A stretch of 64,000 nt of DNA from the IMG/VR virus record IMGVR_UViG_3300025645_000042, positions 32,001 through 96,000 of that record; one strand, written 5' to 3'. Positions 3,374 through 36,603 of this stretch are shown here, in pieces. Position 1 is the stretch's first letter. Each line of letters starts with the position of its first letter. Source of the DNA: a virus. Under the pieces are notes generated by a model that saw nothing but the letters and a program-made list of their open reading frames with translations, ran no database searches and was not told where the DNA came from. Both the position numbers and the translations under genes were made by a program.

Positions 3374-4819
3374 TTGAGTAAACAAAAAAATCCTATTAAA
3401 CGTATCGAATTTTTGGCTAAGAAATTTGATGTCTTCGATGATGAAGACCTTGATAAATTGGTTAAGAAAGACTTTTACTTGTCAAATAATGAACAGTATG
3501 AACATTTATATAATATAAAGGACACTGGTGAAAACCAGTTATATGCTTTATATACATTTAACCAACGTTTATTAAAAAATACTGGTGCTAAGGTTCCAAA
3601 GAAAATTAGGATTGCTGATTTTGTTTTTATTGATGTTGTTCAAAACGACCCGACTGAACATAAAGAATATGTTCAATGGATGTTGACGACATTTACTAGA
3701 TTGATAAAAGAGAATGAATTAATGCAAGCGTTAATGTTTGTTAGCGAGGATTTATGGTTAGCTTCTGATTATCTTGAGGTATTTCATAAGAATAGACATA
3801 AACCAAAGTTTAAAGCAATGTGCAGACGTAATTTAGCGTTTGCTAATATTACTGACCCATCAGATATTAATCAGTATAGGGATTTATCCCAATTATTTGA
3901 TGCAGTTGACCCTTTTATTGAAAAGGACGTTAGTAAATTGGAAAGGGATATTAGGATTATGGCCAAGTTAAAGCATGGTGCCATTCCTTACGAAGATAGA
4001 TATGTAATAATTTTCAATCCAATTACGATTAAAGCTAGTAGGTTATTTGCAAAATTAACCAATTGGTGTACCACATCTAATAAAGATACTCATAAGAGTT
4101 ATATTAAGAATTATAAAACACCAACGGGAAAAAAGAGTACATTACATGTACTTATTTTTAAAACATATTTGTTAGAAGATGGTAATCCTAATAAAACTGA
4201 TGATATTTATCAATTTCATTTTGAAAGTGGTCAATTTATGAACAGAAAAGATGGAAGAATTAAAGATATTCCATCGTTGATTAGTGGTAATATTGGGTTA
4301 AAAAAATACTTTTACAATTCATTGGTTAAATTGACCATGGAGTGTAAATTTAATAAATTAAATAACAAGTATATAAATGCGTTATTCGAATTTGGATTTG
4401 TTGATGTAATATTTGAGATATATCCAGATGACACTAAACAATTAAGGTTTCATGGATTTAATATATCTGAAACCCCAGATATTAGTAAATTTAGTAACTT
4501 AAAATTATTATATTTAGTTAATTGTAAGTTAGAAAGAATAGACCCAAGTGTGGGAGCATTAAAAGAGTTAACTATGTTAACGTTAACTAATAATAAATTA
4601 AAAACTATACCCAAGACTATTGGTAATTTAAAAAAGTTAAGGGTATTATCTTTAACTGGTAACTCGATAAAGGGTTTACCTGAAGAATTAGGTCAATTAG
4701 ATAAAGCTAACGGTGGTTCACTGGAAATTTTATCAGTTGATAATGAATTGTTTGAAGAGGCTAGTGAATTATTTCCTAGTATAATTGTAAATCAATTCGA
4801 TAAAATAATGAGTAAATAA
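3374..4819 (+). CDS. leucine-rich-repeat protein with an uncharacterised N-terminal phage domain
   Basis: C-terminal LxxLxLxxNxLxxIP repeats (LTMLTLTNNKLKTIP, LRVLSLTGNSIKGLP); N-terminal NWCTT...YQFHFESGQFMN; TTG start. Confidence 0.8.
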   Translation: MSKQKNPIKRIEFLAKKFDVFDDEDLDKLVKKDFYLSNNEQYEHLYNIKDTGENQLYALYTFNQRLLKNTGAKVPKKIRIADFVFIDVVQNDPTEHKEYVQWMLTTFTRLIKENELMQALMFVSEDLWLASDYLEVFHKNRHKPKFKAMCRRNLAFANITDPSDINQYRDLSQLFDAVDPFIEKDVSKLERDIRIMAKLKHGAIPYEDRYVIIFNPITIKASRLFAKLTNWCTTSNKDTHKSYIKNYKTPTGKKSTLHVLIFKTYLLEDGNPNKTDDIYQFHFESGQFMNRKDGRIKDIPSLISGNIGLKKYFYNSLVKLTMECKFNKLNNKYINALFEFGFVDVIFEIYPDDTKQLRFHGFNISETPDISKFSNLKLLYLVNCKLERIDPSVGALKELTMLTLTNNKLKTIPKTIGNLKKLRVLSLTGNSIKGLPEELGQLDKANGGSLEILSVDNELFEEASELFPSIIVNQFDKIMSK

Positions 4820-4876
4820 CTACATACCCTCTTTTGTTTTTATTTATTCATTTAGTTAATTATAAATAAAAAAGAA

Positions 4877-5410
4877 ATGGAATTAAAAGACATGATTTGG
4901 AAGAGGGTACACCACGGTGATATCAAGGAACCATTAGTTGATTATTTAGAAAAAATAATCGATGAGCAACACGAAATAGGTAATAAACTTAAAATCTGTG
5001 TTGGTACGGATTCACAAAAAAATGGTAAAGGGTTTAAATACGCAACTGCTATTATAATTGAAATGAAATCCCCCGTTAATATGGGTGGTGGTAATATTGT
5101 TTATAAAGGTATTGGGGCTAAAGTAATTTCTGGTGTTTTCACTGAAAAACGAAAACCTACTATAAGAGAAAGGATGTTAAAAGAAGTTCAAATGTCTATT
5201 AATGTTTGTTTTCATATACTTGATTTAGTTGAATTATATGATATTGACATGGAAATCCATGCTGATGTTAATCCTAACCCAATGTGGGCATCTAATGTTG
5301 CTCTTACAGAGGTTGTAGGTTTCTGTAAAGGTATGAACTTTACATATAAAATTAAGCCCGACGCATATGCCGCAAGTTCGGGAGCCGACAGGCTCTGTAA
5401 TGGAGGATAA
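4877..5410 (+). CDS. RNase H-like YkuK (DUF458) family protein
   Basis: VGTDSQ, EIHADVN, KPDAYAASSGAD motifs. Confidence 0.8.
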   Translation: MELKDMIWKRVHHGDIKEPLVDYLEKIIDEQHEIGNKLKICVGTDSQKNGKGFKYATAIIIEMKSPVNMGGGNIVYKGIGAKVISGVFTEKRKPTIRERMLKEVQMSINVCFHILDLVELYDIDMEIHADVNPNPMWASNVALTEVVGFCKGMNFTYKIKPDAYAASSGADRLCNGG

Positions 5411-5414
5411 TCAT

Positions 5415-5440
5415 AAAAAGCACCCAATGGGTGCTTTTTT
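5415..5440 (+). terminator. intrinsic terminator
   Basis: AAAAAGCACCC-AAT-GGGTGCTTTTT. Confidence 0.85.
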
Positions 5441-5475
5441 ATTCCCAATTTTAAGGTAAATCAAATTAATTTTTG

Positions 5476-5483
5476 TATATTTG
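5476..5483 (+). promoter_or_regulatory. Bacteroidota-type -7 element TATATTTG upstream of the Gly-rich array
   Basis: TAnnTTTG 18 nt before the first ATG of the array. Confidence 0.6.
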
Positions 5484-5501
5484 TAATAATATAAGAAACA
5501 T

Positions 5502-5708
5502 ATGAATATAAAGATTTCAAAGGGTACTGCTTGTGGTTCTGGTTATGGTTCTGGTAGAGGTAATGGTTCTGGTTATGGTAATGGTTCTGGTACTGCTTCT
5601 GGTTCTGGTTATGGTTGTGGTAATGGTAATGGTAATGGTTGGGGTGATGGTTATGGTAATGGTAGAGGTTCTGGTAATGGTAGAGGTTATGGTTATGGTA
5701 TAGGTTAA
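5502..5708 (+). CDS. Gly-X repeat peptide, array unit 1 (68 aa)
   Basis: MNIKISKG leader then Gly at roughly every second residue. Confidence 0.75.
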   Translation: MNIKISKGTACGSGYGSGRGNGSGYGNGSGTASGSGYGCGNGNGNGWGDGYGNGRGSGNGRGYGYGIG

Positions 5709-5720
5709 AAAATAAAACAT

Positions 5721-5840
5721 ATGAATATAAAGATTTCAAGAGGTTATGGTAGAGGTTCTGGTTATGGTTCTGGTTCTGGTACTGGTACTGGTTGGGGTGA
5801 TGGTTCTTGTGGTTATGGTTATGGTGATGGTAATGGTTAA
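5721..5840 (+). CDS. Gly-X repeat peptide, array unit 2 (39 aa, absent from the ORF track)
   Basis: read by hand: MNIKISRGYGRGSGYGSGSGTGTGWGDGSCGYGYGDGNG-stop. Confidence 0.75.
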   Translation: MNIKISRGYGRGSGYGSGSGTGTGWGDGSCGYGYGDGNG

Positions 5841-5852
5841 AAAATAAAACAT

Positions 5853-6107
5853 ATGAATATAAAGATTTCAAGAGGTGAGGGTAATGGTGATGGTGGTAAT
5901 GGTTGGGGTGATGGTGATGGTGATGGTTCTGGTAATGGTTATGGTGGTTATGGTTATGGTTATGGTAATGGTAATGGTTCTGGTTCTGGTGATGGTTCTG
6001 GTTCTGGTTGGGGTGATGGTAATGGTAATGGTAATGGTTATGGTAGAGGTTCTGGTGATGGTAATGGTTCTGGTGATGGTTCTGGTAATGGTTCTGGTAT
6101 AGGTTAA
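5853..6107 (+). CDS. Gly-X repeat peptide, array unit 3 (84 aa)
   Basis: MNIKISRG leader, Gly-X body. Confidence 0.75.
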   Translation: MNIKISRGEGNGDGGNGWGDGDGDGSGNGYGGYGYGYGNGNGSGSGDGSGSGWGDGNGNGNGYGRGSGDGNGSGDGSGNGSGIG

Positions 6108-6973: not shown

Positions 6974-7001
6974 AAAACCGTCTCTTCAGATGGTTTTTTT
7001 T
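6974..7001 (+). terminator. intrinsic terminator
   Basis: AAAACCGTCT-CTTC-AGATGGTTTT plus T run. Confidence 0.8.
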
Positions 7002-7018
7002 ATTTACTTATTTTAAAA

Positions 7019-7813
7019 TTGTTTTATCTTTTTTTCATGAAAGATAAAATTATTCTACCTGTAGGGAAGGCACATCAAAGAGTTATTAGGGAACAAAAAG
7101 AACTAGAAGAAAAACAATCTGGGGAAATACCAATTTGGGAATCCATCAACAGGGATATTTCAAATGCAGTGGTGAAACCAATAGAGCGTTCCTTAGCGAA
7201 GAAAATTGTTGAGGAATATGAATGGTTAGGTTGTATGCCAGCGTTCAGCAAATACCAGTTTGGCATCTTCTATGACGATGTTTGCGCTGGTGTTACAGTA
7301 TTTGGTACTGATTACATTGAAAATTTAGGTCATTGGGATAAATATTATTATACTGGACGTATGCTTTTATTGAGTAGAGGTGTTTGTGTTCATTGGGCAC
7401 ATCCACATTCTGGCAGTAAGTTAATTATGGAAAGTATAAAGCAACTTCCAAAGGAATATGATGTGATAACCGCTACAATTGACCAAGCAGCTGGTGAAAT
7501 TGGTACCATATATCAGGCTTGTAATTTCACATACATTGGTAGTATGCGTGAGAATAATCCAAAGATAAAGAATAAGAATCCAAGAGATAGGTTTGGTGTT
7601 AGAATTAATGGTAAGATTTATGGCCCTAGAGCTATGAGAACTAAAATTGGTAGTCAGAGAAAGGAAGAGATTTTAAAACACTTCCCAGATGCCGAATTCA
7701 TACCACAATTTAATAAACATAGATACTTTTATTTTTTAGGTAGTAAGAATAATAAGAGATTCTTGAAGAAACAGATTGAGCATATGATTAAACCTTATCC
7801 AAAGAGAAGTTAA
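7019..7813 (+). CDS. Mom-like adenine modification enzyme (GNAT fold); likely start ATG 7037
   Basis: IVEEYEWLG...FGIF...GVTVFG and DQAAGEIGTIYQACNFTYIG resemble the Mu Mom family. Confidence 0.7.
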   Translation: MFYLFFMKDKIILPVGKAHQRVIREQKELEEKQSGEIPIWESINRDISNAVVKPIERSLAKKIVEEYEWLGCMPAFSKYQFGIFYDDVCAGVTVFGTDYIENLGHWDKYYYTGRMLLLSRGVCVHWAHPHSGSKLIMESIKQLPKEYDVITATIDQAAGEIGTIYQACNFTYIGSMRENNPKIKNKNPRDRFGVRINGKIYGPRAMRTKIGSQRKEEILKHFPDAEFIPQFNKHRYFYFLGSKNNKRFLKKQIEHMIKPYPKRS

Positions 7814-8082
7814 TTTCCTCCTTCAAATCTAAATATTGTTGCACACCTATTACATCTATGAAACTCGGTCCATGTGTAAGTATCACCCCAATCCGATTGA
7901 AATAATTTCCAATTATAATATCTTGGCCACTTAGAATTATTTACTATGTAAACATCAGAATCATTGAAGGGTTCTCTACATTTAGGACAATCTCCATATA
8001 GTCCTTTAGATTCAATCGATTCTTCTAATAAATCATCAGGTGCTGGCTCTTTATTTGGTGCGTATGCTTCAAAACCATTCAT
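7810..8082 (-). CDS. putative Zn-binding protein
   Basis: CPKC and CNRC pairs. Confidence 0.6.
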   Translation of the reverse strand: MNGFEAYAPNKEPAPDDLLEESIESKGLYGDCPKCREPFNDSDVYIVNNSKWPRYYNWKLFQSDWGDTYTWTEFHRCNRCATIFRFEGGN

Positions 8083-8213
8083 TATTTATATTTTTCAAGA
8101 ATAGCTAAAACTAATTTAAGAGGCACAGTTTTTCTCCATGGATTAGTTTCAGGGTAATCTTCATTTACCATATATATTTGTTCTAAAAATTCTATATCTT
8201 TTTTAATGTCCAT
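8082..8213 (-). CDS. small hypothetical protein (43 aa, not in ORF track)
   Basis: read by hand MDIKKDIEF...ILEKYK; fills the gap with overlapping start/stop codons on both sides. Confidence 0.6.
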   Translation of the reverse strand: MDIKKDIEFLEQIYMVNEDYPETNPWRKTVPLKLVLAILEKYK

Positions 8214-8626
8214 TATATAAATTTTTTAAGTATGTTAAACCATTTATCCATAATTTCTTGGTAGGTATCACTATCCAAATTGTTCCAAACATCATCAAAA
8301 CCACTTCTATCAGTTAAATCGCTAACAATTTCATCGAAGGCATGATAAATATCTTTGTTTGATTTTCTATCAGATGGTGGAACATCTAGATATCTACATT
8401 GATTTATCTCATCCAAAAAATCATTGAAACGTCTTTTAACACACTCTATAACAGTTTCATCTTCATTTTCACGTAAATCTTCACCATCCCATAAAACATG
8501 TTCACCAAATAGAATAGCTTCATAATACCCATTGGTTTCATATTTAAATCCATATAGGTCATCACATTTATCGTTGAAATCGTAATTGATTAATTCTAGT
8601 TCTTTAAGAATTTCTTGCGTTAACAT
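8213..8626 (-). CDS. hypothetical protein
   Basis: 137 aa acidic ORF in operon. Confidence 0.7.
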   Translation of the reverse strand: MLTQEILKELELINYDFNDKCDDLYGFKYETNGYYEAILFGEHVLWDGEDLRENEDETVIECVKRRFNDFLDEINQCRYLDVPPSDRKSNKDIYHAFDEIVSDLTDRSGFDDVWNNLDSDTYQEIMDKWFNILKKFI

Positions 8627-8627
8627 A

Positions 8628-8966
8628 TTAATCTGCTATTAAAACTAAATTATAATCTCTAACGACTTTCCCTAGAATAACTTTTACTTTATCAATTATA
8701 TCATCGATTTGTGTTCCATCGTTTTTACCAGTCATGAAAAATCTTTCCCATAACCAACCTCTAAGTTCACTAAGGTTATCAAAATCACTAATAATTTTTT
8801 TCTGTTTCTTAGGGTTACTAAGTAAAAAATTTGAATAGTTAGAAATGTTAACACTAGGTTGTAATTCAACATAGCTGTATTTTAAGTTGGGTTCATATTC
8901 TGTCTTTACCCATACTTCAACTTCAAATAATGTTTTATTGTCTTTATCTCTTAAGTAAAATATCAT
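8628..8966 (-). CDS. hypothetical protein
   Basis: 112 aa ORF in operon. Confidence 0.7.
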   Translation of the reverse strand: MIFYLRDKDNKTLFEVEVWVKTEYEPNLKYSYVELQPSVNISNYSNFLLSNPKKQKKIISDFDNLSELRGWLWERFFMTGKNDGTQIDDIIDKVKVILGKVVRDYNLVLIAD

Positions 8967-9403
8967 TCTTCTTCTAAAAATTTATCTTGATGTTTCATAA
9001 AATTCAATAATAATTTGATTATATTTTCAGCACCAGATGGATTAGCACTATGTACTGACCACAGTGGTAATTCTTTATTATAATCTAAACAATAATCAAC
9101 TAACCATTTGGCCGCATCCATTCCAGTTTTCTCTTGGAAGTCTTGTTCTTTGGACCAATCATTATAATCACCATATCTCTCTTCTGGAGCGTAGTGTTCA
9201 TCGGCTAAGTCATGGTCAAACGAAATCTTATGTGGTAATCCGTTGTGAATTATCCATTGTTCGAATTCTTCAAAGGTTTTAACCCAAATTACTACATCCA
9301 TATTCATTCTATCGGCAACAAATTCAGGGCAGAATTTATCTAAGAAAGAATTATATTTTGGACTACGATAATCATCGAGCCATAATAGCGTTTTAATCTT
9401 CAT
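8963..9403 (-). CDS. receiver-like domain protein (cyclic-phosphate-processing receiver family)
   Basis: LWLDDYR, ISFDHDL, TGMDAAKWL, VHSANPSG motifs. Confidence 0.7.
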   Translation of the reverse strand: MKIKTLLWLDDYRSPKYNSFLDKFCPEFVADRMNMDVVIWVKTFEEFEQWIIHNGLPHKISFDHDLADEHYAPEERYGDYNDWSKEQDFQEKTGMDAAKWLVDYCLDYNKELPLWSVHSANPSGAENIIKLLLNFMKHQDKFLEEE

Positions 9404-9605
9404 TTACAATCCATCTATTTAATAACTTCCCTTCCATAGTTGGAAAGAAATCTGTTGAACCCATATCAGATATTGGTATTTCAAATGTTACTATCGCACC
9501 ATCATCTAACATAGTTGTATAATAAGCAACTCCAACTCTAATCATAGTTAAATTTGCTATTGGTTTTTGCTTGTATAAAGCTTTTTTAATTTCTGTTGTT
9601 GTCAT
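9393..9605 (-). CDS. hypothetical protein
   Basis: 70 aa ORF in operon. Confidence 0.7.
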   Translation of the reverse strand: MTTTEIKKALYKQKPIANLTMIRVGVAYYTTMLDDGAIVTFEIPISDMGSTDFFPTMEGKLLNRWIVNED

Positions 9606-32670: not shown

Positions 32671-34467
32671 ATGTCAAATTTTTTAAATTCAGGTAAAGTT
32701 GGTAATATCGGCTTAAACCACATGAAAACAATACGTGAGAACACTATCAACAAATGGGATTCATTAGGATTCTTAGATGGTCTTAAAGGTCACGTAAAAG
32801 AGAACATCGCTCAATTATATGAAAACGAAGCTTCTCACTTATTAAACGAATCAACTGATGCTTCTAGCTCAGGTTCTTTCGAAACCGTAGTATTCCCTAT
32901 TGTTAGGAGAGTATTCTCAAAATTATTAGCTAATGACATTGTGTCTGTACAAGCTATGAATATGCCAATTGGTAAATTATTCTTCTTTGTACCACAAACG
33001 TCATCTAGATATGATGCTACTGGTGATGCTTATGGTGACCCTCATAAAGATGGTCCTCAATATTCTGCACACACTTCAATGGGTTCAGATGGTTTACCAA
33101 TCGTAAGAGGTGTAGACCCTTCATATGCTCCTACTCAGTACTTGAGTAAGAACTTATATGATATTTACTATAATGATGGATTATTTGATGCATCAAAAGG
33201 TGAAATATCAATTATTACTGGTACTGGTACGTTAAAAACGTTAGGTGCGGGTGGTACTTTCACTACAGCTGCTGATTTTGCTGCTCTTCCAACTGCTACT
33301 GATGGTTCTTTAAGAACTGCAATTTTAGCTGTATCTGGATTTAGCTCAATCAATAAAGGTAGATTAAGTGGACCAGATGGTAATCCAATGGATACTGAAT
33401 CTTTCTTAGCGTCTTTAAAAGTTGTTACTAATGGTATCGCTTTAACTGACCAAGATAGTAATGTAATTGTTGCTGATGCAACTGAAGTTCCATTTAGATT
33501 GGTAACTCAAAAATACGGTAAAGGTATCGTATCATACGATGATATTTGTGATGATGCTGGTGTTATTTACTTAGAATTAGATATGACTCACCCTGTAGAT
33601 GCTGCTGGTACTTCAACATACGATGGTTACATCGGTGCTGACTTAACATTAGCTTCAGGATTCACATCTTCAGATTTCTCAGTATCTTGGGCAGAATATG
33701 CTACATTAGAACTTGAGACTGAAATGGGAGAAGTATCTTTCAAATTAGACGAAGTAGTTGTTTCTGTAGAAGAAAGAAAATTAAGGGCTACATGGTCTCC
33801 AGAATTAGCGCAAGATGTTAGTGCATTCCACAACATTGATGCTGAAGCTGAATTGACTGCTATGTTATCTGAGCAAGTTGCTGCTGAAATCGATAGAGAA
33901 ATCTTAAGAGATATCAGAAAAGCTGCTGCATGGCAATTGAGATGGGATTGGAACGGATGGAGAAAAGCTTCATTAGCTGCTAATGCTTATACTCAAAAAG
34001 ACTGGAATCAAACTTTAATTACTAAAGTTAACCAAATTTCAGCACAAATCCATAAGTCTACTCTTAGAGGTGGTGCTAACTTTGTTGTTGTATCTTCAGA
34101 AATTTCTGCTGTATTCGATGATTTAGAGTACTTCCACGTATCTGACGCAAGTCCAGAGCAAGACCAATATAATATGGGTATCGAGAAAATCGGTTCATTA
34201 AGTGGACGTTACCAAGTGTACCGTGACCCTTATGCTCCATCTTGGTCACTTATTATGGGACACAAAGGTAAGTCTTTATTAGACACAGGTTACATCTACG
34301 CACCTTACGTGCCAATGCAACTTACGCCTACAATGTATAACCCATTCAACTTTGCACCAGTGAAAGGTATAATGACACGTTATGCTAAAAAGGTCGTGAA
34401 CAATAGGTTCTACGGAGCTATTAGAGTTGACGGATTACAAACATTCAACGTAAACGAATTAAGATAA
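32671..34467 (+). CDS. major capsid protein (T4 gp23-like)
   Basis: IVSVQAM, RKLRATWSPELAQD, DAEAEL...EIDREI, YAPYVP, GIMTRY. Confidence 0.96.
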   Translation: MSNFLNSGKVGNIGLNHMKTIRENTINKWDSLGFLDGLKGHVKENIAQLYENEASHLLNESTDASSSGSFETVVFPIVRRVFSKLLANDIVSVQAMNMPIGKLFFFVPQTSSRYDATGDAYGDPHKDGPQYSAHTSMGSDGLPIVRGVDPSYAPTQYLSKNLYDIYYNDGLFDASKGEISIITGTGTLKTLGAGGTFTTAADFAALPTATDGSLRTAILAVSGFSSINKGRLSGPDGNPMDTESFLASLKVVTNGIALTDQDSNVIVADATEVPFRLVTQKYGKGIVSYDDICDDAGVIYLELDMTHPVDAAGTSTYDGYIGADLTLASGFTSSDFSVSWAEYATLELETEMGEVSFKLDEVVVSVEERKLRATWSPELAQDVSAFHNIDAEAELTAMLSEQVAAEIDREILRDIRKAAAWQLRWDWNGWRKASLAANAYTQKDWNQTLITKVNQISAQIHKSTLRGGANFVVVSSEISAVFDDLEYFHVSDASPEQDQYNMGIEKIGSLSGRYQVYRDPYAPSWSLIMGHKGKSLLDTGYIYAPYVPMQLTPTMYNPFNFAPVKGIMTRYAKKVVNNRFYGAIRVDGLQTFNVNELR

Positions 34468-34470
34468 TAT
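34402..34470 (+). repeat. 69-bp direct repeat copy 1 (capsid gene 3' end)
   Basis: 65/69 identical to 35613-35681. Confidence 0.95.
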
Positions 34471-34500
34471 AACTTCTTACTCGTTTCGAGATAATAACCA

Positions 34501-34532
34501 AAAAGGTCTAGATTTTTCTAGACCTTTTTTTT
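34501..34532 (+). terminator. intrinsic terminator after capsid gene
   Basis: AAAAGGTCTAGA-loop-TCTAGACCTTTT plus T run. Confidence 0.88.
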
Positions 34533-34601
34533 ATTTATATAAAGAACCATAAATTCTATTATTTACTTGTATTTTACAATATTTATTAGTATACTTGCAT
34601 T

Positions 34602-35279
34602 ATGAAAAAAATAGAATTTATAAAAGAAGATATTAAAGAAATTATTAGGTTGTATAACGAAGAAATGTTAGGTACTCCATCAATTGGTGAAATATTTAAT
34701 GTTGGTAAGAAGGTTATTAATCGAACCCTTAAAGAAAATGGTGTTGTAATGGGACCATCTGGTAGGAAATTTACTGGCGGTAAAAGTGTGGCCGATAAAC
34801 GTTACAGCGAAAAAAATAAAGAAAAATTAACTGAATACCACAAAGTTTGGTCTAAAAATAATAGAAGTAAATTAAGAGATTATCATTCAGAGTGGCGTGA
34901 AGAAAATAAAGAACATATAAATGAATATAAACGCAATTATGAGCGAATGAAGTGTGCGGCTGACCCAAGGTATAAAATATCTAAAAGAACTCGCACAGCG
35001 GTTTATACATGTCTTAAAGAAGCTAACATATCAAAGTATCGTTCTACGTTTAGTATAATAGGTTATGGTATTGATGAATTAATGGAACATTTGGAGAAAC
35101 AATTTGTTGATGGAATGACTTGGGATAATTATGGTGAGTGGCATGTTGACCATATAAAACCAATGTCATCATTCTCATTTAAGAGCGTTGATGACATTGA
35201 GTTTAAGGAGTGTTGGAAATTGGATAATCTTCAACCGCTTTGGGGTGAGGATAATTTATTAAAAGGGTCATTTTATTAA
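34602..35279 (+). CDS. free-standing HNH homing endonuclease
   Basis: WHVDHIKP...NLQPLWGEDNLLKG; basic helical middle; late motif at 34579-34586. Confidence 0.85.
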   Translation: MKKIEFIKEDIKEIIRLYNEEMLGTPSIGEIFNVGKKVINRTLKENGVVMGPSGRKFTGGKSVADKRYSEKNKEKLTEYHKVWSKNNRSKLRDYHSEWREENKEHINEYKRNYERMKCAADPRYKISKRTRTAVYTCLKEANISKYRSTFSIIGYGIDELMEHLEKQFVDGMTWDNYGEWHVDHIKPMSSFSFKSVDDIEFKECWKLDNLQPLWGEDNLLKGSFY

Positions 35280-35421
35280 GAATTCAATAAAAATTTAAAA
35301 ATAATCATATTTTTATTAAAACTTTTTAAAATTTGGGACTATTCTATATATGTAGACTTTATAAAAAGTCATGATGTATTACATACTTTGTAATATAAAT
35401 AACAATTAATAATTTTTTTAT

Positions 35422-35613
35422 ATGAAACAATTTTATGAAGGTGATTTATGTAAACATAAATCACAAAATATACTATTTGTTGTTGAAATTGAAGACCATC
35501 CTGATTATACCATAAGTCATGTTAACAAATATGGTGACCTACATCGATTCACAACAAAATTTCATTGTTTGGAACCTGTTAATAAGGGTAATGGGTTGAA
35601 GTTACATACTTAA
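35422..35613 (+). CDS. small hypothetical protein
   Basis: 63 aa; stop codon abuts the second repeat copy. Confidence 0.5.
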   Translation: MKQFYEGDLCKHKSQNILFVVEIEDHPDYTISHVNKYGDLHRFTTKFHCLEPVNKGNGLKLHT

Positions 35614-35681
35614 ATAGGTTCTACGGAGCAATTAGAGTTGACGGATTACAAACATTCAACATTAACGAGTTAAGATAATAT
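35613..35681 (+). repeat. 69-bp direct repeat copy 2: orphaned capsid C-terminus NRFYGAIRVDGLQTFNINELR-stop
   Basis: same peptide as the capsid C-terminus except V to I; own terminator follows. Confidence 0.95.
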
Positions 35682-35702
35682 CTTAATATCGTAGAGATAG
35701 AT

Positions 35703-35730
35703 AAAAGCCTAGCTAATGCTAGGCTTTTTT
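35703..35730. terminator. bidirectional intrinsic terminator
   Basis: AAAAGCCTAGC-TAAT-GCTAGGCTTTT; overlaps the recombinase stop. Confidence 0.88.
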
Positions 35731-36297
35731 ATTTAATTTTTTTACTTTTTGAACCGTCCCTGAAGATTTATTTGTTAATGACATCACTTTTCTTATTGAA
35801 TATCCCATATTTAAAAAGGCTGTAACTTTTTCATTTTCTTTTAAAAAATGCAAATCACTTTTTTTGGACCCTCTTTTACGACCTAATTTACCACCTTTTT
35901 TTATATAAAGTTCTCTACCAGCGTTTAACCTTTTTTTAATTCTTTCTGTTTCTAAAGCAGAATCTTCTATTTGCTTTTTTAAGCTATCGTTTTTATCATT
36001 GAAAGCACAAATTATTTTCACATCTAAAATCTTACAATTATCAATAAAATATTTCAAATATCTTTCTTTTCTAGAAACCCTATTTAATTCAGTTACCAAA
36101 ACAATTTTGATGTTTTTCGTATCTAAAAAATCAATATACTTTTCTACATCAATAAAATTTTTAAAACCACTACAATAAGATTCAAATATTTTGACTATAT
36201 TATATTCAGAATATTTATCAACCAAATGATTTATTTGATAATTTGTATCTTGTTTAACTGTACTACATCTAGCAATTATTATTGCGTTATTTATCAT
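35719..36297 (-). CDS. small serine recombinase (resolvase/invertase family)
   Basis: ARCST catalytic Ser, SG, ELNRVSR, GGKLGR, C-terminal HTH. Confidence 0.88.
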   Translation of the reverse strand: MINNAIIIARCSTVKQDTNYQINHLVDKYSEYNIVKIFESYCSGFKNFIDVEKYIDFLDTKNIKIVLVTELNRVSRKERYLKYFIDNCKILDVKIICAFNDKNDSLKKQIEDSALETERIKKRLNAGRELYIKKGGKLGRKRGSKKSDLHFLKENEKVTAFLNMGYSIRKVMSLTNKSSGTVQKVKKLNKKA

Positions 36298-36603
36298 TTA
36301 GCCAAATTTTATTTCAGCTTGTTCATCTGTTAATTTATTATCCTCATAAAAAATGGTGTAAAAAGTTTGACCATTTTCTTGAACCCAATATAATTCATAA
36401 CCATCAACGATTTCAACTAATTGAGCTGATTCATAACCGTATAAATCATCATCCTCATATGATGAATATTCTAAACTTCCATCAGAATCATAGGGATAAT
36501 ACTCGTCATTTAATTTAAATTCGAAGTATTCAGCTTCATCAATCCCAAAAGCGTCTACAAGGGCCTCTCTAGCTTCTTTATAAGCGTCTATAATATCTTT
36601 CAT
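36298..36603 (-). CDS. hypothetical acidic protein
   Basis: 101 aa ORF in operon. Confidence 0.7.
   Translation of the reverse strand: MKDIIDAYKEAREALVDAFGIDEAEYFEFKLNDEYYPYDSDGSLEYSSYEDDDLYGYESAQLVEIVDGYELYWVQENGQTFYTIFYEDNKLTDEQAEIKFG

Follow-up and report, generated by a model that had tools for sequence, protein, structure and literature searches.

The window analysed here is a 64-kb stretch of a 119-kb viral record in IMG/VR (IMGVR_UViG_3300025645_000042), a metagenome-derived viral contig. In this window, the 3′ end of the gene for a gp23-like major capsid protein occurs twice, and a putative HNH-type nuclease gene lies between the two copies. The capsid gene (32671–34467, plus strand) encodes 598 amino acids (aa), matches Pfam PF07068 (E 1e-70) and PHROG 138, and is preceded by an acidic scaffold-like open reading frame (ORF). 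Its product is full-length compared with the relatives L001–L007 (fetched loci carry L numbers), with 86–93% aa identity. Repeat copy 1 (34402–34470, plus strand) is the functional capsid tail with the last 21 codons and the stop, followed by a spacer of the L005 type. Repeat copy 2 (35613–35681, plus strand) is a displaced, non-translated tail (NRFYGAIRVDGLQTFNINELR and a stop) with no capsid body upstream and with a spacer of the L001/L003/L006 type. The repeat had been described in an earlier note on this DNA and was recovered with the same extent, namely 65 of 69 matching nucleotides (nt) at a spacing of 1211 nt, comprising the last 66 nt of the gene and 3 nt past the stop. The copies differ by two synonymous codon pairs (GCT/GCA and GAA/GAG) and by GTA/ATT, which exchanges V for I, and the longest exact run common to both is 30 nt. 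Apart from a glycine-repeat gene array, no other dispersed high-identity repeat of at least 40 nt within 6 kb was found across the window.

The earlier note had further stated that each copy has its own stop and terminator and that the repeats enclose an HNH gene and a small ORF, and both statements were borne out. TAA ends both copies, while the spacers and terminator hairpins behind them are unrelated (23/60 in ungapped comparison). Terminator 1 (34500–34529) is a two-way hairpin of 13 pairs with a T-run, and terminator 2 (35703–35728, plus strand) has 11 pairs and resembles the capsid terminator of L001. Three terminator-like sites were found versus 0.7 expected. Between the copies lie the intact nuclease ORF (34602–35279, plus strand, 225 aa) and orf63 (35422–35613, plus strand, 63 codons), whose stop codon abuts copy 2. 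A late promoter motif, which the earlier note had also listed, did not hold up. The T4-type 8-mer TATAAATA is present at 34532–34539 on the minus strand and at 35394–35401 on the plus strand, and it was rejected as evidence because it is not enriched in the window (26 found vs 21.3 ± 4.7 expected). An intron with copy 2 as second exon was considered as well and rejected. No group I or II intron or other RNA family was found above threshold between 34200 and 35900, where the scan returned sub-threshold terminator look-alikes only. As the unspliced capsid gene is moreover already complete, the intron reading is unsupported.

The 225-aa protein matched PHROG 1035 ‘endonuclease VII’ with E 1e-11, and the phage genes that it matched by tblastn are annotated as HNH or endonuclease VII. 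Across 34 aligned homologues, 36 columns were invariant, including H181, D183, H184, N209 and N218 (H-x-D-H...N...N). HNH or His-Me finger nucleases are recognised by a beta-beta-alpha-metal core in which a His, often as part of a D-H pair, is catalytic and Asn or His serve as metal ligands. The layout of the protein is an N-terminal three-helix helix-turn-helix (HTH), a helical linker and a C-terminal HNH-like domain that carries the H-x-D-H...N...N residues. An AlphaFold (AF2) model reached a predicted local distance difference test score (pLDDT) of 85. The first ∼50 residues form an HTH like those of the GcrA, Tc3 and resolvase DNA-binding domains (Z 7.9, root-mean-square deviation 1.6, 47 aligned residues). 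When folded alone, the C-terminal 85 residues gave a pLDDT of 79 with a predicted strand-strand-helix pattern. In a fold search with VIA-align this domain had weak matches (Z 2.0–3.1), eleven out of 18 of which were HNH-type nucleases; Foldseek with the whole model and with the C-terminal domain returned the N-terminal HTH alone or nothing. With some reservation, the protein can thus be considered as an HNH-type nuclease. In L104, L111, L114 (471 aa) and L177 (1532–2989, 485 aa), the nuclease ORF continues into a fused C-terminal extension of ∼250 residues, and the long fused ORF of L177 extends right up to a second capsid tail.

The capsid protein led to 80 relatives of the locus in IMG/VR, and a search of IMG/VR and JGI metagenomes that used only the nuclease provided further loci. 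The nuclease lies directly 3′ of a gp23-like capsid gene in all 137 nuclease-fetched loci with enough upstream sequence (137/137), and the capsid gene ends at most 400 nt upstream of it in each. Many of the 80 capsid relatives have a nuclease homologue 100–150 nt past the capsid stop, and the usual site of the family is intergenic, after the capsid terminator. The nuclease is absent from the close relatives L003–L007, and L001 has a remnant of 41 residues. Its presence or absence changes at least 27 times on the capsid tree. L077 without and L136 with the HNH gene are 99.7% identical through the capsid gene to +59 nt and unrelated from there on. No such nuclease gene follows the capsid gene of the cultured relative Flavobacterium phage immuto. 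Such a distribution is that of a mobile and dispensable element whose home is fixed, and the ORF belongs to a free-standing nuclease family bound to the 3′ flank of the capsid gene.

Two relatives show apparent stages of decay. In L001 (6865–6987), nuclease residues 183–223 remain with 95% nt identity to the window and are joined to the middle of the upstream motif described below. In L003 (5850–5956) the nuclease gene is missing, and a hairpin like terminator 1, the promoter region and the motif in inverted form are left.

A replacement of the capsid 3′ end together with the nuclease is visible in the pair L105 and L170. In coordinates that count from the last base of the capsid stop (position 0), both share a 100% identical block of 905 nt from −119 to +785. 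It takes in ∼39 codons at the end of the capsid gene, continues through the terminator and the promoter region, and extends to the stop codon of the complete nuclease ORF. Outside of the block, the capsid bodies are ∼90% identical and nothing aligns past the HNH stop. A replacement capsid 3′ end and a terminator are therefore part of the unit that moves, in line with what the earlier note had proposed for the element. L105 and L170 were the only pair to emerge from a search for further pairs with an identical HNH block and divergent capsids.

The capsid segment at which the repeat starts proved to be a synonymous hot spot. For 84 locus pairs with capsid bodies at least 96% identical and different downstream DNA, mismatches per site amounted to 0.018–0.020 between −480 and −180 and rose to 0.044 (−180 to −130), 0.071 (−130 to −100) and 0.091 (−100 to −70). 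The highest value was measured between −70 and −48 with 0.222, ∼11-fold over background, followed by 0.086 (−48 to −24) and 0.052 (−24 to 0). The bin with the maximum coincides exactly with the NNRFYG codons; this protein sequence is almost invariant and the mismatches there are synonymous. In 15 pairs with the same downstream DNA, mismatches were close to 0 throughout. In the window, the NNRFYG(A) codons lie at 34399–34419 (plus strand), and the left boundary of the repeat falls between the Val codon and NN (V/NN, 34398/34399).

The nuclease was also associated with particular nucleotides in this region. Among 68 non-redundant loci with (HNH+) and 55 without the nuclease (HNH−), the association at synonymous sites was restricted to the last ∼90 nt of the capsid gene. 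It peaked at 34398, the third base of the Val codon before NN, with p 3e-9: T occupies this position in 32/55 HNH− loci vs 5/68 HNH+ loci. In phylogenetically independent pairs, T was opposed to the nuclease in an average of 5.2 cases and coincided with it in 0.2 (median p 0.06, limited power). Hypervariation at the start of the repeat would correspond to the protective variation that the earlier note had invoked for homing targets. The hot spot is what would be expected of such a site, and the NNRFYG codons are likely to be the target, a putative region of recognition and cleavage.

Second capsid tails with their own terminator were found in six loci, namely the window, L010, L086, L105, L170 and L177. 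The nuclease is present in the window, L086, L105, L170 and L177. Homology begins no more than a few nt from V/NN in the window, L010, L086, L105 and L170. The second copy of L177 is decaying, with an in-frame stop and homology that is clear only from the Tyr-Gly codons on. The codon differences between the copies were predominantly synonymous, with 2 synonymous and 1 non-synonymous in the window, 11 and 0 in L010, 10 and 0 in L086, 12 and 0 in L105, 9 and 0 in L170, and 8 and 2 in L177, in total 52 and 3. Given this synonymous excess, the copies diverged as working capsid ends in different genomes; a dead local duplicate would gather mostly non-synonymous changes. The spacers and terminators differ between the copies in most of these loci, L010 being different in this respect. 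A second tail has been kept in four (∼5%) of the 82 non-redundant nuclease loci whose downstream sequence covers at least 1.5 kb. The second tail is thus an occasional by-product and not the normal state of the family.

A sequence resembling the presumed target was found in front of the nuclease. The 17-mer AATAATAGAATTTATGG (34547–34563, minus strand) agrees at 16/17 positions with the degenerate capsid pattern AAYAAYMGNTTYTAYGG, and it is the only other match to this pattern with at most one mismatch in the 64 kb (0.15 expected). For the relatives, the best agreement with AAYAAYMGNTTYTAYGG was scored from the capsid stop to the nuclease start in HNH+ loci and in the first 115 nt past the stop in HNH− loci. 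The mean score out of 17 was 14.5 in HNH+ loci, 35/68 of which reached at least 15, compared with 11.75 (1/55) in HNH− loci and 12.0 (3/1360) in shuffled controls. The motif stands 31–76 nt ahead of the nuclease ATG and has plus orientation in 41/47 cases; the window and a few relatives have it inverted. It may represent an operator or else a relic, and its persistence across nuclease alleles that are only ∼50% identical in protein favours a function over a decaying relic. By analogy with I-TevI, the 17-mer probably lets the enzyme bind its own promoter region.

Within one genome, motif and capsid matched on average at 1.73 of the six degenerate positions vs 2.30 ± 0.13 after shuffling, and no permutation was lower, with a statistic that ignores phylogeny. 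It is conceivable, though rather doubtful, that the cassette carries the preferred sequence of its enzyme as a target-mimic operator and that the accompanying capsid allele has been recoded away from it. If this were true, nuclease allele specificity and the state of the arms race at the capsid gene would be readable from the sequences of hundreds of uncultured phages. The second tail, where one is present, would then make the intergenic element intron-like, with both homology arms inside the conserved capsid gene. As a separate observation on the same region, TAnnTTTG stands ∼10 nt before the nuclease start with TTG ∼20 nt further up in L017, L022, L025, L027, L086 and others, and the window has TATACTTG. 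We take this arrangement to be a promoter pattern of the Bacteroidota type. It would fit a Flavobacteriia-like host and early expression by the host polymerase.

The best explanation of the whole, which is considered fairly probable, is that 34540–35612 is a free-standing homing-endonuclease cassette that brought a replacement capsid tail and displaced the resident one. The cassette would comprise the target-like motif, the promoter region, the 225-aa HNH-type nuclease and the small ORF, and would belong to a family restricted to the slot 3′ of the gp23-like capsid gene of uncultured T4-like phages that form a large clade. Upon mixed infection, the capsid gene of a rival would be broken by the nuclease at or next to the NNRFYG codons, ∼70 nt before the stop. 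Repair from the nuclease-bearing genome would, by co-conversion, bring in the capsid tail of the donor along with its stop and terminator, followed by the nuclease gene. A break at V/NN would leave perfect homology on the left, in the capsid body, and often none on the right. The right end would often lack a homologous partner because the DNA on this side is hypervariable and transcribed towards the capsid gene. A minority of events may end with the copied strand being joined without homology to the broken right end, which starts with NNRFYG. The resident tail, from the break to the terminator, would then be left as an untranslated second copy downstream. For the window, the predicted outcome is a hybrid capsid gene with copy 1 as its end, and a copy 2 that is orphaned together with terminator 2. 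ORFs that enter the junction stop there, as the Asn-Asn-Arg codons contain stops in other frames, and the stops at the junction would fit truncated donor genes, namely orf63 in the window and orf133 in L105. Precise excision by recombination between the repeats, as envisaged in the earlier note, is plausible.

A number of points weigh against this explanation. The position of the cut is indirect, as a site at or beside the NNRFYG codons is deduced from three signals, namely the hot spot, the shared breakpoints and the target-like motif. Many of the 84 pairs behind the hot spot are non-independent; the pattern was repeated in more than 12 unrelated groups. Pfam searches with the nuclease and its 34 homologues gave no HNH or Endonuclease_7 match, and PDB sequence and profile searches with the nuclease gave nothing relevant. 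L105 and L170 differ in the genes between HNH and tail 2, which a one-step model fails to predict. The nearest HNH relatives, L234 (90% nt identity) and the L001 remnant, have no second tail, orf63 or recombinase. The earlier note had linked the duplication to the HNH gene, and five of the six second-tail loci do carry it, yet L010 has the duplication without this HNH and carries a GNAT-domain ORF and, further on, a GIY-YIG-like ORF instead. The terminators of L010 are also nearly identical while its tails differ, which is the reverse of the situation in the window.

Of the downstream displacement of the original tail, as claimed in the earlier note, it was supported that both copies are tails that once worked in different genomes. 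In this genome, the imported copy may be copy 1 and the original one copy 2. The alignment of capsid loci that the earlier note had suggested for finding the ancestral copy traced both alleles to relatives. Copy 1 is closest to the HNH-less L005 (tail 61/66, post-stop spacer 56/59), whereas the spacer and terminator of copy 2 match L001 and L006/L007 (47/52). Since both spacer types occur as single capsid ends in relatives, both are natural capsid 3′ ends. The relatives are, however, mosaic at tens of bases, which leaves the polarity ambiguous, and sliding-window capsid identity did not assign donor and recipient. The upstream region of the nuclease is common to the window, L001 and L003, and the stem of terminator 1 resembles that of L003. 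The variable middle of the capsid gene is closest to L001/L002, which favours copy 2 as the resident, as does the analogy with L105/L170. On balance, copy 2 is quite probably the original.

The opposite polarity, in which copy 1 and terminator 1 are resident and the cassette brought copy 2, terminator 2 and perhaps the recombinase gene on its right side, is unlikely, though it accounts for several observations. Copy 2 would then be a ready-made right homology arm or a piece of the donor’s previous host. With this polarity agrees that the DNA extra to L005 extends from 34540 to 36302 (34539 and 36303 are adjacent there) and so takes in copy 2, terminator 2 and the recombinase, that copy 1 has the spacer of a locus without HNH, and that L234 has the same downstream genes as the window (orf101 and a winged-helix gene) and no second tail. 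These points, which count against copy 2 as the resident, are opposed by the L105/L170 block, which holds tail 1 and not tail 2, the tail 2 copies of the two loci being different. The variable middle of the capsid points to the relatives with the spacer type of copy 2, and HNH, orf63 and tail as one travelling unit were found in no fetched locus.

An ordinary local duplication of the capsid end by slippage or unequal crossing-over, unconnected to the nuclease and followed by drift, would explain why the first 47 nt of the window copies differ at one base. Both copies also have ATT and GAC, where the five aligned close relatives (L001, L003, L005–L007) have GTN and GAT, and the terminators of L010 are nearly the same. 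Due to these shared variants and the identity of the copies at the hot spot, later gene conversion between the copies is likely, and such conversion is proposed for their near-identical start within the displaced-tail explanation. A local duplication is very improbable given that the spacers and terminators of the window are unrelated and each matches a different natural allele, that the ratio of 52 to 3 is unlike the drift of a dead copy, and that one breakpoint is common to the six loci (in L177 with the restriction given above). An assembly artefact would have stitched two strain variants, with and without HNH, through shared tail sequence; the contig is derived from a metagenome, the repeat is short and strain mixtures are common. 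Against this, the longest exact shared run is 30 nt and the same architecture was present in five further contigs, which come from different samples. Where the orf63 stop runs into the tail, the left junction of copy 2 lies outside of the shared sequence and must therefore exist in reads, so that there is very little to be said for an artefact. HNH proteins adjoin terminase genes in HK97-like phages, and a housekeeping helper of morphogenesis or packaging, with the repeat being incidental, might be thought of because the nuclease always lies beside a head gene and its ORF was intact and conserved in all loci examined. Such a role is extremely improbable for a gene that phage immuto and many close relatives with near-identical capsids lack, and that changes its presence so often on the capsid tree, moved as a discrete identical block in L105/L170, and is decayed or deleted in L001 and L003.

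Parts of the arrangement are known from other systems. In fungal mitochondria, mobile endonuclease ORFs (mORFs) in atp6 of Allomyces macrogynus and in atp6, atp9, cox2 and nad3 of Glomus insert a foreign C-terminus and displace the native one (PMC3630166). As in these, the endonuclease ORF of the window lies between two 3′ ends of its host gene, the upstream one in frame and translated and the downstream one orphaned, and the copies differ mostly synonymously, which points to different source genomes. The native copy is the downstream one in mORFs; here, copy 1 resembles L005 and copy 2 L001/L006, with mosaic relatives. The phage locus differs in that it concerns a capsid gene of a lytic phage and an HNH-type enzyme, whereas mORFs encode LAGLIDADG or GIY-YIG enzymes. 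The imported tail of the phage comes with a stop and a terminator of its own and in no case forms a fusion with the nuclease ORF, and the phage family is intergenic without a second tail in ∼95% of loci. No description of a phage counterpart of this tail replacement was found in the literature searched on this theme.

The free-standing T4 endonucleases SegB–SegG and MobE are known for intronless homing, co-conversion and marker exclusion, and cut a conserved neighbour gene away from their insertion point, thereby dragging the intervening sequence along (PMC2988022). The present family is similar as a stand-alone gene between conserved genes with a likely distant cut in the neighbour gene, co-travelling flanking sequence and a patchy occurrence among relatives. 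In contrast to Seg and Mob, it has no sequence relation to them at Pfam level, its slot 3′ of gp23 differs from the examples given there (PMC2988022), and the tail leftover and the hot spot are known from metagenomes and not from crosses. I-TevI, and putatively I-TevII and I-TevIII, repress themselves through an operator that looks like the homing site and overlaps their own promoter (PMC2988022). The look-alike of the presumed target, with 14–17 of 17 positions, is comparable in its place upstream of the nuclease start; unlike the I-TevI operator, it may be a relic of an old tail duplication, and it occurs in both orientations. For SegB in phage T6, local duplications triggered by the endonuclease were shown experimentally as segmental amplification (PMC13096335). 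A break by a homing endonuclease followed by local duplication is likewise proposed here. T6, however, undergoes tandem amplification under selection by host defence, whereas the window has a single displaced gene end of foreign origin.

The earlier note had compared the element with the regeneration of tRNA gene ends. Integrative elements regenerate the 3′ ends of tRNA genes upon site-specific recombination by an integrase at the attachment site. The analogy holds in that the incoming element supplies a replacement 3′ end and the gene stays functional. It does not extend to the integrase, as break repair and gene conversion are indicated here, without any sign of attachment-site logic. Altogether, the interpretation in the earlier note was largely right in kind.

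The DNA to the right of copy 2 is part of a capsid flank that is hypervariable and transcribed towards the capsid gene. A serine recombinase of the resolvase/invertase type (35719–36297, minus strand, 192 aa; Pfam PF00239 with E 2e-10, PHROG 125) is convergent with the capsid gene and lies directly behind terminator 2, in an apparently lytic T4-like phage. None of the 242 fetched loci has it, and an IMG/VR search found no relative; a phage of the recipient type predicted by the displaced-tail explanation, with this capsid body, a tail of the copy 2 type, terminator 2 and the recombinase but lacking the cassette, was thus not found there. Beyond it follow the 101-aa orf101 and the winged-helix gene, likewise on the strand opposite to the capsid gene. 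An orf101 homologue lies directly past the terminator in L005, a small lipoprotein-like ORF in L003 and three small ORFs in L006. L001 has three paralogous ORFs (6999–9586, minus strand; 199, 304 and 259 aa) with repeated ‘W(K/R)KANP..Y’ starts, one of which was tested and had no Pfam match. In L234, the nearest intact HNH relative, two other ORFs are present, and L234 has an ORF of 112 aa related to the L001 paralogues. For orf63, no PHROG or Pfam match and no phage tblastn match was obtained, and its single IMG/VR match (L162) was discarded as an unrelated high-GC contig. The junction of orf63 with copy 2 was not found in an exact search of IMG/VR. This ORF may be a truncated donor gene or no gene at all.

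Further ORFs and repeats were observed in the slot of other loci. Several cargo ORFs (L010, 6860–7633; L105, 4687–5088 and 6320–7078) have a common N-terminus of 15 residues, MKxLIxKxLRExLNN. The first two align with 11/15 identity, and the ORF of L010 has a GNAT domain. Their L-x-E leader presumably resembles the capsid-targeting, protease-cleaved leaders of T4 internal head proteins and is treated as a candidate likeness. Between nuclease and second tail, L086 has two ORFs (4652–5263 and 5369–5968, both minus strand) with repeated DUF723/treble-clef zinc-finger units. Such domains are DNA-binding modules of T5orf172-type homing endonucleases (PMC10448857), so that the slot appears to gather several endonuclease-related genes. 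In L103, a 46-nt segment after the nuclease (∼4687–4732) is repeated ∼1.1 kb further on (5845–5890) and flanks another insert, and the segment is single in L031; the repeat possibly stems from a second nested insertion with target duplication. The capsid tail of L140 has an in-frame TAA five codons before the normal end (TFD, stop, QELR) where its twin L141 has TTA, which would be either a sequencing error or a capsid shorter by five residues.

Much of the mosaicism of lytic phage genomes is attributed to homing endonucleases, and to our knowledge nearly all mechanistic knowledge of phage homing comes from T4 crosses. The slot, the sharply bounded hot spot at the likely target and the occasional repair ‘scars’ described here are a natural, population-scale record of homing in uncultured phages. 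The moving unit is a nuclease plus ∼40 codons of an essential structural gene, and owing to this co-transfer of the tail, capsid phylogenetic markers can be chimeric at their 3′ end. For the new nuclease family, a candidate recognition sequence and a candidate operator are now available. The locus combines intronless homing of the T4 type with C-terminus replacement of the mitochondrial mORF type and is a phage counterpart of the latter, and its displaced-tail architecture ties phage biology to the mobile endonuclease ORFs of fungal mitochondria.

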